A stretch of 64,000 nt of DNA from positions 54,498,001 to 54,562,000 of the forward strand of contig OZ024743.1 of NCBI GenBank assembly GCA_964016885.1, written 5' to 3'. Numbering within the stretch: position 1 is the stretch's first letter; every line of letters starts with the position of its first letter. A program made the position numbers and the translations under genes. Positions 928 through 59,136 of the stretch are shown piece by piece. This DNA is from Eledone cirrhosa (lineage: Eukaryota). The notes under the pieces are model-generated. The model did not search any database. It was not told the DNA's origin and saw only the letters and a list, made by a program, of their open reading frames with translations.

Positions 928-3900
928 AATAGTATTGTTGTTATTGTTGTTGTTGTTGGTGGTGGTGGTGGTGTTGTTGTTGTTGTTGGTGGTGGTGTTG
1001 TTGGTAGTCTTTTTGTTGTTGGTTGTGGTGGTGTTGTTGGTAGTCTTTTTGTTGTTGTTGGTGGTGTTGTTGGTGGTGGTGGTGTTGGTGGTGGTGGTGT
1101 TGTTGGTAGTCTTTTTGTTGTTGTTGGTGGTGTTGTTGTTGGTGGTGGTGTGGTTGGTGGTGGTGTTGTTGGTAGTCTTTTTGTTGTTGTTGGTGGTGTT
1201 GTTGTTGGTGGTGTTGTTGGTGGTGGTGTTGTTGGTGGTGTTGTTGGTGGTGGTGTTGTTGGTGGTGGTGTTGTTGGTGGTGGTCTTGTCGGTGGTGGTG
1301 GTGTTGTTGGTGGTGCTGTTGTTGTTGGTGGTGGTGGTGTTGGTGGTGTTTTTGTTGTTGGTGGTGGTGGTGTTGTTGTTGGTGGTGGTGGTGTTGGTGG
1401 TGTTTTTGTTGTTGGTGGTGGTGTTGTTGTTGGTGGTGGTGTTGTTGGTAGTGATTTTGTTGTTGGTGGTGGTTTTGTTGGTGGTGGTGTTGTTGGTGGT
1501 GGTGTTGTTGTTGGTGGTGTTTTTGTTGTTGGTGGTGGTGTTGTTGTTGGTGGTGGTGTTGTTGGTAGTGGTGTTGTTGGTGGTGGTGTTGTTGTTGTTG
1601 ATGGTGGTGTTGTTGGTAGTGTTTTTGTTGTTGCTGGTGGTGGTGTTGTTGGTGGTGGTGTTGTTGGTGGTAGTGTTGTTGTTGGTGGTGGTGTTGTTGT
1701 TGGTCGTGTTTTTGTTGTTGATGGTGGTGGTGTTGTTGATGGTGGTGGTGGTGTTGTTGGTGGTTGTGGTGTTGTTGGTAGTGATTTTGTTGTTGGTGGT
1801 GGTGTTGTTGTTGGTGGTGTTGTTGGTGGTGGTGTTGTTGTTGGTGGTGGTGGTGTTGTTGTTAGTGTTGTTGGTAGTGTTGTTGGTAGTGGTGTTGTTG
1901 GTAGTGTTGTTGGTGGTGGTGTTGTTGGTGTTGTTGTTGTTGGTCGTGTTTTTGTTGTTGCTGGTGGTGTTGTTGTTGGTGGTGGTGTTGTTGGTAGTGT
2001 TGTTGGTGGTGTTGTTGGTGGTGTTTTTGTTGTTGGTAGTGTTTTTGTTGTTGCTGGTGGTGTTGGTGGTGGTGGTGGTGGTGTTGGTGGTGGTGTTGGT
2101 GGTGGTGGTGTTGTTGTTGGTGGTGGTGTTTTGGTGGTGGTGTTGTTGTTGGTGGTGGTGGTGTTGGTAGTGTTTTTGTTGTTGCTGGTGGTGTTGTTGG
2201 TGGTGGTGGTGATGTTGGTAGTGTTTTTGTTGTTGGTGTTGGTGGTAGTGTTGTTGGTGTTGTTGTTGTTGTTAGTCGTGTTGTTGTTGTTAGTGGTGTT
2301 GTTGTTGTTGTTGTTGTTAGTGTTGTTGTTGGTGGTGGTGTTTTTGTTGTTTCTGGTGGTGTTGTTGGTAGTGTTTTTGTTGTTGTTGGTGGTATTGTTG
2401 TTGCAGGTGGTGTTGTTGGTGGTGGTGGTGTTGTTGGTGGTGGTGTTGTCGGTGGTGGTGGTGTTGTTGGTGGTGGTGTTGTCGTTGTTGGTGGTGGTGT
2501 TGCTGGTGTTTTTGTTGTTGGTGGTGGTGTTGTTGGTTGTGATTTTGTTGTTGGTGGTGGTGTTGTTGGTAGTGATTTTGTTGGTGGTGGTGGTGTTGTT
2601 GTTGGTGGTGGTGGTGTTGGTGGTGTTGTTGATGGTGGTGGTGGTGTTGTTGGTGGTGGTGGTGTTGTTGGTAGTGATTTTGTTGTTGGTGGTGGTGTTG
2701 TTGTTGGTGGTGGTGTTGGTAGTGTTTTTGCTGTTGGTTTTGGTGGTAGTGTTGTTGGTGCTGTTGTTGTTGTTAGTGGTGTTGTTGTTGTTGGTGGTGG
2801 TGTTTTTGTTGTTGCTGGTGGTGTTGTTGGTAGTGTTTTTGTTGTTGTTGGTGGTATTGTTGTTGCAGGTGGTGTTGTTGGTGGTGGTGTTGTTGTTGGT
2901 CGTGTTTTTGTTGTTGATGGTGGTCGTGTTGTTGATGGTGGTGGTGTTGTTGTTGGTGGTGTTGGTGGTGTTGTTGGTAGTGATTTTGTTGTTGGTGGTG
3001 GTGTTGTTGTTGGTGGTGTTGGTGGTGTTGTTGGTAGTGTTTTCGTTGTTGCTGTTGGCGGTGTTGTTGTTGGTGGTGGTGTTGTTGGTAGTGTTTTTGT
3101 TGTTGCTGGTGGTGGTGTTGTTGGTGGTGGTGTTGTTGGTGTTGTTGTTGTTGGTCGTGTTTTTGTTATTGATGGTGGTGGTGTTGTTGTTGTTGGTGGT
3201 GGTGTTGTTGGTAGTGTTGTTGGTAGTTTTGTTGGTAGTGGTGTTGTTGGTAGTGTTGTTGGTGGTGGTGTTGTTGTTGGTGATGTTGTTGTTGGTCGTG
3301 TTTTTGTTGTTGATGGTGGTGGTGTTGTTGTTGGTGGTGGTGGTGTTGTTGGTAGTGTTTTTGTTCTTGCTGATGGTGTTGTTGGTGGTGGTATTGTTGT
3401 TGGTGTTTTTGTTGTTGTTGTTGGTGGTGATGTTTTTGTTGTTGGTAGTGTTTTTGTTGTTGCTGGTGGTGTTGTTGGTGGTGGTGGTGTTGTTGGTGGT
3501 GGTGGTGTTGTTGGTGGAGGTGTTGTCGGTGGTGGTGGTGTTGTTGGTGGTGGTGTTGTTGTTAGTGGTGGTGGTGTTGGTAGTGTTTTTGTTGTTGCTG
3601 GTGGTGTTGTTGGTGGTGGTGGTGACGTTGGTAGGTTTTTTTGTTGCTGGTGGTGTTGTTGGTGGTGGTGGTGATGTTGGTAGTGTTTTTGTTGTTGGTG
3701 TTGGTGGTAGTGTTGTTGGTGTTGTTGTTGTTGTTAGTGGTGTTGTTGTTGTTAGTGTTGTTGTTGTTGGTGGTTGTGTTTTTGTTGTTGTTGTTGGTGT
3801 TGTTGTTGCAGGTTGTATTGTTGGTGTTGTTGTTGTTGTTGTTAGGGGTGTTGTTGTTGTTGTTGTTAGTGTTGTTGTGGTTGGTGTTGGTGTTTTTGTT

Positions 3901-4143
3901 GTTGTTGGGGGTGTTGTTAGTAGTATTTTTGTTGTTGCTGGTGGTGATGTTGTTGTTAGTAGTGTTGTTGTTGGTGGTGGTGGTGTTTTTGCAGCAGTAG
4001 TAGCAGCAGGCAGCAGAAGCAGTAGTAGTAGCAGGAGCAGCAGCAACAGCAGTAGTAGTAGTAGTAGTAGCAGCAGCAGCAGCAGCAGCGGCAACAGCAG
4101 TAGTAGTAGTAGCAGAGCAGCAGGCAGCAGCAGCAGTAGAAGT

Positions 4144-19176: not shown

Positions 19177-19655
19177 ATGCATGTATGTATACGCACATAC
19201 ACATATGTATACAGAGGTACAGTAGTATGTATATATATACATACATGCACATATATATATATGCACGTATCGGTTTACCGAACATTTATTATACGCCGTA
19301 CAGTGTTTAGGCAACCACGTCACTTTTTTGTTCAACTCTGACACAGGAACGATGTACTAGTTTCAAGCTTATTAGCTATCGTCAGCATCGTATACCTTCC
19401 TGCCAGATGGTTGAACGTCTGAAAGTATATACTTTCCTTTTGCATATTAACGGCTGAGCAGCCTAAAAGGTGACGTGGTTGCCTAAACACTGTTCGGCGT
19501 AATTCGGGCTGTTTGTTTGTTTACAAACAAACCGAACATTATAATAAATGTTCGGTAAACCGATACGTGCATATATATATGTGCATGTATGTATATATAC
19601 ACATACTACTGTACGTCTGTATACATATATGTATGTACATATACATACATGCATA
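19177..19655. mobile_element. Fold-back hammerhead-bearing element
   Basis: Inverted arms ~19177-19326 / ~19485-19655 flank a hammerhead. Confidence 0.7.
19349..19391 (-). ncRNA. Type I hammerhead ribozyme
   Basis: acgatg CTGACGA t-agct-aata-agct-t GAAA ctag TA catcgt. Confidence 0.8.
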
Positions 19656-29066: not shown

Positions 29067-29248
29067 TCATTATATATATATATATATATATTGGAATAAA
29101 TGCTCTGAAATAGCGATATATATGTGAATATAGACATAGAATATTCGAAAATATTCTGTATGTTCATAATAAACATTTTGAAGACCTAATCGCTATAGAA
29201 TAGAATACGTCACGTATTACAATTAGATTCTCGATAAAAGCAAGGGAA

Positions 29249-30847
29249 GTAAGTCTACGCGTTTCATTCTTGTTAGAATTCATCAGGACTACATATCCAG
29301 TGCTTTCATCGAGAATGGCACAGCTAGAGACTTATAGAATACTTAGCTGTGTACAGGAACTGGTTTGAAAGAGCGGTTGCCGGTCCGGCAGAAATTAGAA
29401 ATTGGAATAAATGCTCTGAAATAGCGATATATATGTGAATATAGACATAGAATATTCGAAAATATTCTGTATGTTCATAATAAACATTTTGAAGACCTAA
29501 TCGCTATAGAATAGAATACGTCACGTATTACAATTAGATTCTCGATAAAAGCAAGGGAAGTAAGTCTACGCGTTTCATTCTTGTTAGAATTCATCAGGAC
29601 TACATATCCAGTGCTTTCATCGAGAATGGCACAGCTAGAGACTTATAGAATACTTAGCTGTGTACAGGAACTGGTTTGAAAGAGCGGTTGCCGGTCCGGC
29701 AGAAATTAGAAATTGGAATAAATGCTCTGAAATAGCGATATATATGTGAATATAGACATAGAATATTCGAAAATATTCTGTATGTTCATAATAAACATTT
29801 TGAAGACCTAATCGCTATAGAATAGAATACGTCACGTATTACAATTAGATTCTCGATAAAAGCAAGGGAAGTAAGTCTACGCGTTTCATTCTTGTTAGAA
29901 TTCATCAGGACTACATATCCAGTGCTTTCATCGAGAATGGCACAGCTAGAGACTTATAGAATACTTAGCTGTGTACAGGAACTGGTTTGAAAGAGCGGTT
30001 GCCGGTCCGGCAGAAATTAGAAATTGGAATAAATGCTCTGAAATAGCGATATATATGTGAATATAGACATAGAATATTCGAAAATATTCTGTATGTTCAT
30101 AATAAACATTTTGAAGACCTAATCGCTATAGAATAGAATACGTCACGTATTACAATTAGATTCTCGATAAAAGCAAGGGAAGTAAGTCTACGCGTTTCAT
30201 TCTTGTTAGAATTCATCAGGACTACATATCCAGTGCTTTCATCGAGAATGGCACAGCTAGAGACTTATAGAATACTTAGCTGTGTACAGGAACTGGTTTG
30301 AAAGAGCGGTTGCCGGTCCGGCAGAAATTAGAAATTGGAATAAATGCTCTGAAATAGCGATATATATGTGAATATAGACATAGAATATTCGAAAATATTC
30401 TGTATGTTCATAATAAACATTTTGAAGACCTAATCGCTATAGAATAGAATACGTCACGTATTACAATTAGATTCTCGATAAAAGCAAGGGAAGTAAGTCT
30501 ACGCGTTTCATTCTTGTTAGAATTCATCAGGACTACATATCCAGTGCTTTCATCGAGAATGGCACAGCTAGAGACTTATAGAATACTTAGCTGTGTACAG
30601 GAACTGGTTTGAAAGAGCGGTTGCCGGTCCGGCAGAAATTAGAAATTGGAATAAATGCTCTGAAATAGCGATATATATGTGAATATAGACATAGAATATT
30701 CGAAAATATTCTGTATGTTCATAATAAACATTTTGAAGACCTAATCGCTATAGAATAGAATACGTCACGTATTACAATTAGATTCTCGATAAAAGCAAGG
30801 GAAGTAAGTCTACGCGTTTCATTCTTGTTAGAATTCATCAGGACTAC
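29249..30847 (-). ncRNA. Six type I hammerheads (44 nt; start 29249, 29560, 29871, 30182, 30493, 30804)
   Basis: Reverse complement of the motif at 31294. Confidence 0.9.
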
Positions 30848-31293
30848 ATATCCAGTGCTTTCATCGAGAATGGCACAGCTAGAGACTTATAGAATACTTA
30901 GCTGTGTACAGGAACTGGTTTGAAAGAGCGGTTGCCGGTCCGGCAGAAATTAGAAATTGGAATAAATGCTCTGAAATAGCGATATATATGTGAATATAGA
31001 CATAGAATATTCGAAAATATTCTGTATGTTCATAATAAACATTTTGAAGACCTAATCGCTATAGAATAGAACTATTCTATAGCGATTAGGTCTTCAAAAT
31101 GTTTATTATGAACATACAGAATATTTTCGAATATTCTATGTCTATATTCACATATATATCGCTATTTCAGAGCATTTATTCCAATTTCTAATTTCTGCCG
31201 GACCGGCAACCGCTCTTTCAAACCAGTTCCTGTACACAGCTAAGTATTCTATAAGTCTCTAGCTGTGCCATTCTCGATGAAAGCACTGGATAT

Positions 31294-32270
31294 GTAGTCC
31301 TGATGAATTCTAACAAGAATGAAACGCGTAGACTTACTTCCCTTGCTTTTATCGAGAATCTAATTGTAATACGTGACGTATTCTATTCTATAGCGATTAG
31401 GTCTTCAAAATGTTTATTATGAACATACAGAATATTTTCGAATATTCTATGTCTATATTCACATATATATCGCTATTTCAGAGCATTTATTCCAATTTCT
31501 AATTTCTGCCGGACCGGCAACCGCTCTTTCAAACCAGTTCCTGTACACAGCTAAGTATTCTATAAGTCTCTAGCTGTGCCATTCTCGATGAAAGCACTGG
31601 ATATGTAGTCCTGATGAATTCTAACAAGAATGAAACGCGTAGACTTACTTCCCTTGCTTTTATCGAGAATCTAATTGTAATACGTGACGTATTCTATTCT
31701 ATAGCGATTAGGTCTTCAAAATGTTTATTATGAACATACAGAATATTTTCGAATATTCTATGTCTATATTCACATATATATCGCTATTTCAGAGCATTTA
31801 TTCCAATTTCTAATTTCTGCCGGACCGGCAACCGCTCTTTCAAACCAGTTCCTGTACACAGCTAAGTATTCTATAAGTCTCTAGCTGTGCCATTCTCGAT
31901 GAAAGCACTGGATATGTAGTCCTGATGAATTCTAACAAGAATGAAACGCGTAGACTTACTTCCCTTGCTTTTATCGAGAATCTAATTGTAATACGTGACG
32001 TATTCTATTCTATAGCGATTAGGTCTTCAAAATGTTTATTATGAACATACAGAATATTTTCGAATATTCTATGTCTATATTCACATATATATCGCTATTT
32101 CAGAGCATTTATTCCAATTTCTAATTTCTGCCGGACCGGCAACCGCTCTTTCAAACCAGTTCCTGTACACAGCTAAGTATTCTATAAGTCTCTAGCTGTG
32201 CCATTCTCGATGAAAGCACTGGATATGTAGTCCTGATGAATTCTAACAAGAATGAAACGCGTAGACTTAC
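31294..32270 (+). ncRNA. Four type I hammerheads (44 nt; start 31294, 31605, 31916, 32227)
   Basis: gtagtc CTGATGA attc-taacaa-gaat GAAA cgcg TA gacttac; predicted cleavage after 31330 (GUA). Confidence 0.9.
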
Positions 32271-32390
32271 TTCCCTTGCTTTTATCGAGAATCTAATTGT
32301 AATACGTGACGTATTCTATTCTATAGCGATTAGGTCTTCAAAATGTTTATTATGAACATACAGAATATTTTCGAATATTCTATGTCTATA

Positions 32391-32436
<46 letters not shown>

Positions 32437-44921: not shown

Positions 44922-44966
44922 AATATTGAACTAGTTTCGTTGTTGTTACAACTCATCAGCAATATT
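44922..44966 (-). ncRNA. Type I hammerhead ribozyme
   Basis: aatattg CTGATGA gttg-taacaa-caac GAAA ctag TT caatatt. Confidence 0.85.
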
Positions 44967-57885: not shown

Positions 57886-59136
57886 GGGGGTGCGGTGCGT
57901 TGATCAAATCTTCATTCTCCGGCGTGTCCTGGAACAACGGTGGGCACATCAACAGCCTACCGTCCTCTGCTTCATCGACTTTGCAGCTGCCTTCGACTCG
58001 GTAGATCAGGAAGCCCTATGGCGTATAATGCAGGTGGACGGCATCCCAGTGAAGCTGCTTCGTCTCGTACAAGGCTACTACCGGTCGACTCGGGTCCATG
58101 GTAGGGAGACGGAGACGTTCGATGTTGGGACTGGTATTCGGCAGGGGTGTGCGCTATCGCCAACTCTCTTCAACTACGCGATTGACTACACTCTCAACAC
58201 AGCGCTCGTGATTACCCGGGCGTAGAGGTCGGGAGAGGGGTCGTGGTGACGGACCTGGCGTACGCGGATGACATCGTCCTGATGGGCGCTAACGGGACAG
58301 ATGTACAAGGTGCTCTCGACAGGGTGCACACTGCAGCCGCTGCTGTTGGTCTACGAATCAATGCCGCCAAGTCGAAAGTCATGACGTCACTGGTCTCGCC
58401 TGATGCCTGCCAGCCAATATCTCTCGAGGGCGTGAACCTGGAGAATGTGGAGTCCTTCGTTTACCTGGGCTCAGCAGTGGTTCCAACGAGACAGGGCGCA
58501 GCCGAGGTCAAGCGTCGCATAGGTGCTGCCAGATCCGCTTTTGGGCGCCTCCAGCGGTGTCTGTGGGACAGAAGAGAGATCACCTCGGCGACCAAAGGGC
58601 GAATCGACCAGGCCGTCGTTCACACTATCCTCCTCTATGGCTGTGAAACCAGGTCTATGAGGGTAGTCGATCAACGAGGGCTGGAGGTCTTCGACAATGA
58701 CTGTCTCCGCCGCATTCTTCGCTGCAGACGCGTTGATTGGGTGCCTACTACCTTCGTCTTCGCCTGAATCTTCGACCCCTTCCTTCAGTGCTTCTGCAAC
58801 GGTGCTTGAGATGGTTTGGTCACGCAGCCCGGCGCCCTGAGAGTGAGATGATCCGCAATGTTCTCCTCCCACCTCCACTCCCTAACTGGCGCAAGGGCGT
58901 TGGCGGGCAGCTGAAGACCTGGGCAACGACGATCAAGGAGGACCTCTCCGAACTCTCAGGTCCGCAGGTGGTCGGCCTGCGCCGATGGAACCGTGACTGG
59001 CTCGCTATCTCCAGTGACCTAGCTCGGGACCGTCGTGTGTGGGCTGCCATGGTTCGGGATGCCGTCAAGACAAGGGAAGAAGCCGGCTCAACCCGTTCAG
59101 GGTGAATGTCGACACAAGTACAAGTACAAGTAAGTA
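57886..59136 (+). mobile_element. 5'-truncated RTE-clade LINE (RT domain + C-terminus, disrupted)
   Basis: DQIFILR, FIDFAAAFDSV, GIRQGCALSP, LAYADD, FVYLGS, LRWFGH; (CAAGTA)n tail. Confidence 0.92.

Follow-up and report, generated by a model that had tools for sequence, protein, structure and literature searches.

Metazoan non-LTR retrozymes give rise to circular RNAs; reverse transcription of these circles into tandem cDNA has been proposed, and Penelope-like elements (PLEs) are candidates for carrying it out (Cervera and de la Pena 2020, PMC7229834). A second study derives retrozymes from pLTRs and proposes their local amplification (Li et al. bioRxiv 10.64898/2026.07.22.740005). In both works the PLE machinery is the proposed mobiliser, a view that so far rested on co-occurrence and pLTR similarity. 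EN+ PLE insertions comprise an inverted, 5'-truncated copy, often carry a 30-40 bp tail at one end and are biased towards (TA)n, and the mechanism of tandem and inverted PLE insertion has been called undefined (PMC8557442). Head-to-head palindromes of PLEs have been interpreted as products of self-priming (PMC3846280). In vitro, an anole PLE, a predicted dimer, cuts and extends both strands; two adjacent internal starts bound the tail, the start sites are alike on both strands and hammerhead cleavage is dispensable (PMC11167929). For LINE-1, twin priming and dual priming have been described (PMC2837659).

Inverted arrays appear to be new to this literature. The word "inverted" has 0 matches in the main text of PMC7229834 and one, in a reference title, in the main text of bioRxiv 10.64898/2026.07.22.740005, where "tail" has 0 matches. 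Our literature search, covering main texts and few subscription papers, returned no description of inverted one-tail retrozyme arrays. Here we analyse a 64,000-nt stretch of the Eledone cirrhosa genome (the window; contig OZ024743.1, positions 54,498,001 to 54,562,000). Its palindrome is an unremarkable member of a highly abundant repeat that carries a ribozyme and, judged by their sequence, these retrozyme arrays carry the insertion signature of PLEs.

The palindrome and its 311-nt unit

Both arms of the palindrome are tandem arrays of a 311-nt unit, with 0 mismatches between units. The phases of the unit are numbered from position 29090 (phase 1), and the locus consists of the following parts:

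29071..29089, no strand: left remnant of the (TA)n target sequence
29090..31071, minus strand (the RNA sense): left, tail-bearing arm, 1982 nt, 6.4 units, phase 1 to 116
29090..29124, minus strand: 35-nt tail between the fixed outer-end sites at phase 1 and phase 36, at the left end only
30759..30773, no strand: one copy of the small hairpin AATACG-TCA-CGTATT (phases 115-129), at which inner ends do not cluster
30804..30847, minus strand: left-arm hammerhead motif, with five further copies in 311-nt steps down to 29249-29292
31070..31071, no strand: central AA, where the two inner, 5'-truncated ends (phases 116/114) meet
31072..32394, plus strand: right, tail-less arm, 1323 nt, 4.3 units, phase 114 to 36
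31294..31337, plus strand: hammerhead motif of type I, made up of stem I, CUGAUGA, stem II, GAAA and CGCG, with cleavage predicted after 31330
31605, 31916 and 32227, plus strand: right-arm repeats of the hammerhead sequence
32395..32433, no strand: right remnant of the (TA)n target sequence

Over 1332 nt, 29738-31069 pairs with 31072-32403 at 100% complementarity, the two stretches lying 2 nt apart; the final 9 nt of this complementarity consist of (TA)n. As a sequence, the palindrome is far past chance expectation. The sequence-only reading that drew attention to it described the locus largely correctly: the letters at 31061-31080 are as it quoted them, with AA at 31070-31071, the 1.3-kb palindrome is perfect, the arms end at different monomer positions (phase 1 versus phase 36), and the ribozyme-sense strands diverge from the centre, the hammerhead being on the minus strand at the left and on the plus strand at the right. 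Its length for the right arm is exact, whereas the left arm is 1 nt longer than the 1981 nt it had given. The turn sits at the small hairpin, 2 nt into its first stem; the arms are 2 nt apart, as it had stated, but the predicted DNA fold of the centre has a loop of 4 nt, not 2 nt. The join itself is blunt, with zero microhomology and no inserted base. A target-site duplication is unreadable, both array ends sitting inside (TA)n. Rfam matches to miRNAs at the centre only reflect the small hairpin and were set aside. Palindromes with a short spacer can extrude cruciforms.

The hammerhead core and its stems are present in all 10 copies in the window and in the commonest unit of 70/70 loci, where changes in stem I preserve pairing. 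The predicted cut falls between phases 167 and 166. Rfam yields sub-threshold matches only (HH9 on the window unit, 17.8 bits versus a gathering score of 52), and the hammerhead call is therefore based on the core letters and stems, a pattern which we take to be that of type I. The GC content of the unit is about 0.35, and no ORF of at least 150 aa was found over the window array. Tandem units of non-LTR retrozymes measure about 170-400 nt, a range that includes the 311 nt found here. By unit size, low GC, one motif per unit and lack of an ORF, the array would thus be of the non-LTR retrozyme type. It is not filed as an autonomous PLE, as it holds no ORF with reverse transcriptase (RT) and GIY-YIG domains, and appears to behave like a PLE passenger. 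Elsewhere in the window, positions 935-3991 are occupied by a degenerate (TTG)n array of 3 kb with extreme strand skew.

An abundant family with fixed outer ends

Across the genome (3.0 Gb), the exact junction of (TA)n to phase 1 occurs 975 times and that of (TA)n to phase 36 occurs 715 times; the unit motif, which catches related families too, has 16,528 matches. Insertions were sampled from three sources: (a) the window and 16 loci drawn from 150 listed unit matches, (b) 60 stretches around the first phase-1 junctions of contig C1 and (c) 20 stretches around phase-36 junctions without an exact phase-1 match nearby. The sample is biased, coming mostly from one contig and being anchored on one end: at the 80 C1 loci one end was selected on (TA)n, and the other end was unselected. 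The duplicates L093 and L077:1-560 and a match to another family (L100:4131) were left out; one extra cut insertion was counted at L058, and the right end of L080 was set by hand past a separate 23-nt piece. The 98 insertions examined comprise 86 inverted ones (2 cut by the edge of the stretch), 10 with a single arm (one ending in unreadable sequence) and 2 unresolved.

The arm order of the 86 is always + then - (head to head), and - then + in none. All complete inverted insertions (84/84) pair one tail-bearing end (~35 nt) with one tail-less end, one outer end lying at phase 305-9 and its partner at 27-48, with sides split 43 and 41. The same one-tail pairing holds for 17/17 inverted loci selected for having no exact phase-1 end nearby. 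(TA)n was found as the target at the window and the examined loci. The right end of the window array coincides with the second of the family's fixed start sites rather than with a random stopping point. In 37/84 insertions, by more than one unit in 25, the tail-less arm is the longer one and hence cannot come from copying back the tail arm.

Five extra loci (L207-L211), chosen for sharing the variant 76C with the window and kept outside the 98, include three inverted insertions, with turns at about 143/155, 253/106 and 181/91, and two single-arm ones; in one of the five an inner end falls at about phase 115. Whole arrays are fixed for the phase-76 variant on six haplotype backgrounds (the window and these five loci), and 76C was accordingly dropped as a variant private to the window. 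Recurrent mutation or recombination between templates may account for this pattern.

A common template for both arms

Among 52 loci with a full unit per arm, the modal haplotype is equal in both arms at 45, compared with 8.7% across loci; both arms derive from one template. Five of the seven exceptions differ by one variant, L090 by two and L091 by three. In 53 loci with 538 units, 60/70 within-locus variants are singletons, 5 recur in one arm and 5 (three loci) are found in both arms, while 11 of the 53 loci have a variant that all units of both arms share and that is fixed at no other sampled locus. The dominance of singletons together with the locus-fixed variants suggests a bottleneck of one unit, which a monomer circle would impose.

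Four loci follow a different pattern. L091 and L120 have a variant first unit common to both arms, and in L058 and L067 the variant heterogeneity is offset; a monomer circle cannot yield these arrays, which need a multimer template or a template switch. Variant pairs also recur seven units apart in L058:3307-9178 and four units apart in L108:1751-6308, possibly owing to multimeric templates or later duplication.

Coding Penelope-like elements in the same genome

A genome search for GIY-YIG gave 10,597 candidates, of which 150 were scored. The genome contains a young coding PLE family (P0001; L176-L206) with an intact 728-aa ORF encoding RT and GIY-YIG and a CxxxxCxxC linker, a unit of 4.1 kb, a hammerhead-like motif in its end and over 1000 candidates. 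The CxxxxCxxC linker indicates Neptune and Nematis and has been linked to (TA)n targeting (PMC8557442). Among the 31 loci of this family, 20 turns were found, each of them + then -, and wherever both ends were scorable (12/12 loci) only one end has the tail, of about 60 nt. In L191, L195 and L196 the tail-less arm reaches beyond the tail arm yet has no tail, so that neither arm can have been copied from the other as DNA. The family has an excess of near-register turns, 3/19 unselected ones (L187, L193, L206) lying within 12 nt; L176, chosen for its symmetry, is outside these 19.

The 311-nt unit has no match to the end of the P0001 PLE (one pLTR; 43/200 shuffles score as well) and none to PLE terminal repeats in the 50 loci searched. 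An RT ORF adjoining a copy in L168 was considered as a partner and belongs to an unrelated LINE. The window contains an RT fragment at 58186-58764 (plus strand; Pfam RVT_1, E 1e-7) as well as two near-identical hammerhead-like motifs, head to head, at 44959 (minus) and 45381 (plus), a pair that is likely another PLE-type inverted insertion. More hammerhead-like motifs occur at 19385, 19821, 25081, 44026, 45954 and 54661 under a loose pattern, some of them maybe by chance. The genome also has a second, related repeat family, 60-87% alike, with a unit of about 321 nt, a divergent hammerhead, head-to-head arms and a one-end tail (L100:3800-4700, L128:2440-2900, L163:4040-4490, L164, L165 and L166). 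Start-site conservation between the two repeat families was discarded as evidence, as it is biased by the pattern that found them.

Register and joining at the turns

For each locus whose own unit was available, that unit served to refine the junction. The register offsets of the 85 turns besides the window's are uniform (KS p 0.90), with 2/85 within 3 nt versus 1.9 expected and 8/85 within 20 nt versus 11.2 expected. Since offsets are uniform and near-register counts are at expectation, the window's turn falls in the tight tail of a flat distribution, and the tightness of this 2-nt turn is likely due to chance; by our estimate, roughly 20-40 loci as tight as this one are expected by chance.

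Comparison with the inversion points of other copies, which the sequence-only reading had suggested, reveals scattered positions: no junction phase pair recurs among the 86 turns. Its proposal that the cDNA stalled at the hairpin finds no support, since the hairpin foot (phases 112-118) harbours 4/170 other inner ends, about 3.8 being expected, and was rejected as a hotspot. The hammerhead cut was likewise rejected as a preferred site (5/172 versus 7.2 expected; no enrichment). Overall, inner phases are mildly non-uniform (p 0.015). Apparent repeated turns at 217/153 and 260/138 reflect an internal stem of the unit and were discarded. At L047:4305-4874 the central junction is locally duplicated, giving + - + -.

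Microhomology of at least 2 nt is found in 37/62 insertion-free turns, versus a null of 17.8% (p 2e-13), and 24/86 turns contain inserted bases, several of them visibly copied from nearby. Templated insertions suggest joining of the polymerase-theta type. Thirteen turns are blunt, like that of the window. Arms that begin in the same unit and end within 60 nt of each other number 7/84, versus 3.3 by permutation (p 0.04).

Mechanism of insertion

The most probable explanation, to which we give a chance of roughly two in three, is that a PLE-like enzyme uses both cut strands to start reverse transcription of one RNA and that the cDNAs are end-joined, the 2-nt turn of the window being chance. A GIY-YIG endonuclease of a PLE, probably of the Neptune type, would cut both (TA)n strands. 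One 3' end would start at the tail site (about phase 305-2) and its counterpart roughly 35 nt beyond it, at phase 27-48, and each RT would then cross several units, likely round a monomer circle and sometimes along a multimer. The cDNA 3' ends, being on opposite strands, would anneal by 0-6 nt or join blunt, and the joined cDNAs would fill in on each other, thereby supplying the second strands.

Priming from both strands is supported by the architecture, the paired fixed outer ends and scattered inner ends, the excess of microhomology and inserted bases and the shared haplotype; moreover, the coding PLE has the same layout, L191, L195 and L196 exclude that one arm copies the other, and the anole enzyme's action on both strands with two adjacent internal starts in vitro (PMC11167929) fits the model. 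The earlier proposal of a reverse-transcribed insertion primed in (TA)n is borne out to this extent. Against two-strand priming count the partner PLE, not found in the one pLTR and 50 loci compared, the heterogeneity of L058, L067, L091 and L120, the inner end near phase 115 in one of the 76C loci, and the near-register excesses. The strict pairing of tail and tail-less ends does not follow from the biochemistry of the anole enzyme, which starts alike on both strands (PMC11167929). A more specific and tentative model, which we would not yet favour, places a PLE-type dimer on one hammerhead RNA circle with two sites 35 nt apart, one per cut strand, such that both subunits roll round and the cDNAs template each other. 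If true, such twin rolling-circle reverse transcription would account at a single stroke for the retrozyme arrays, the head-to-head inversions of PLEs, second-strand synthesis and the tail at one end.

A first alternative retains priming from both strands and denies that the register is chance: both cDNAs ran off the same RNA break, on a circle in different rounds, and were blunt-joined. The inner ends of the window, 2 nt apart in phase and two units apart in reach, would suit this idea, as would the near-register excess in the coding PLE and the mild same-end excess in the retrozyme. Modulo one unit, however, in-register turns of the retrozyme are at expectation and an extra cause is unneeded, and we regard a shared break as an unlikely origin of the window's turn.

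Slightly less probable still is the snap-back put forward in the sequence-only reading, which is akin to the self-priming hypothesis of PMC3846280. In this scenario a stalled cDNA folds, copies itself and joins the other target end at AT microhomology. The tail-less arm of the window is the shorter one and its turn is in register; L063 is an exact product of a 4-bp stem and 3-nt loop (phase 114/107, arm ends 7 nt apart), L091 and L120 are compatible with fold-back, and the near-register turns of the coding PLE agree with it. At the window's turn, however, the overlap is 0. When the cDNA end folds by itself, the terminal AA stays out of the pairing, and the only fold-back possible for this end gives 114/107, not 116/114. 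The uniform register, the hairpin's failure as a hotspot and the many longer tail-less arms also speak against snap-back, which is impossible in three coding PLE loci, and the perfect turns with a 0-nt loop (L043, L187) lie on 6-nt self-complementary words that suit annealing of two molecules. Self-priming may account for a minority of the copies. Judging by the coding PLE's excess of near-register turns and by the mild same-end excess in the retrozyme, it is likely that a minority of insertions arose by snap-back or from a common break in the RNA.

It is very improbable that the centre of the palindrome is a long-read fold-back or an assembly artefact, e.g., a collapsed spacer. Its exact junction was not found in 4 public runs, three of which have coverage (X1, X4 and X5) and lack the window haplotype; their blank is for this reason no test of the turn. 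Both outer ends are typical of the family, they are unlike one another and each has its own flank, the 85 other loci have distinct asymmetric turns, and short-read contigs of X1 contain five other turns of the unit at depth 3-32. The class of turns is real DNA, and the exact centre of this palindrome is as given in the assembly. Part of the unit (window 30760-31400) is present in 20 public runs under 18 organism labels, with no RNA run among those listed, and in X4 and X5 it forms a single 340-nt contig of depth 26-34, which wraps on itself in X5; relatives, contamination or transfer may each lie behind this spread.

Finally, unequal crossover could have enlarged a short insertion of a PLE end on site, a route proposed in bioRxiv 10.64898/2026.07.22.740005, the inversion being either inherited or acquired later. 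This could account for the few variants that repeat within an arm (L058, seven units apart, and L108), but deserves hardly any weight given the predominance of singletons, the precise ends and the unique turns in young, near-identical arrays.

Significance and comparison with known systems

Priming from both strands, as favoured here, can be addressed in this young family, whose insertions, about a thousand or more, offer countable evidence for PLE-type insertion of retrozymes. One tail start and one tail-less start on a common template allow two-strand priming to be tested against self-priming. For PLE transposition this family rule offers a modestly new and testable handle, to which the single 2-nt turn adds little. 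As long inverted repeats, most insertions are potential sources of dsRNA and fragile sites; the earlier idea of a dsRNA, raised for the window, would potentially apply to most copies of the family.

Like metazoan non-LTR retrozymes, the family has tandem low-GC units of ~300 nt, each with a type I hammerhead and no ORF, a likeness in sequence; unlike those described in the main texts searched, its arrays are inverted. With twin and dual priming of LINE-1 it shares an inverted product, junctions with or without microhomology and, probably, priming by both strands (PMC2837659). In contrast to LINE-1, each start is at a fixed site inside the unit, the template segments copied into the two arms overlap instead of being consecutive, and inversion is the rule; a LINE-1-type twin-priming product was rejected, as poly(A) is absent and the arms of L091 and L120 share a variant first unit.

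The family also resembles EN+ PLE insertions as described in PMC8557442, PMC3846280 and PMC11167929: both show a head-to-head copy that is inverted and truncated at the 5' end, a single tail of 30-40 bp, targets consisting of (TA)n or AT-rich sequence, a hammerhead near the end and palindromes at the inverted junction. Unlike these elements, the 311-nt family is non-coding, both its arms are multi-unit arrays, and no pLTR homology to a coding partner was found (one family, 50 loci searched). Where the PLE papers speak of a one-end tail as occurring "often" or "optionally", the rule is strict in the 311-nt family, with one tail in every complete inverted insertion.
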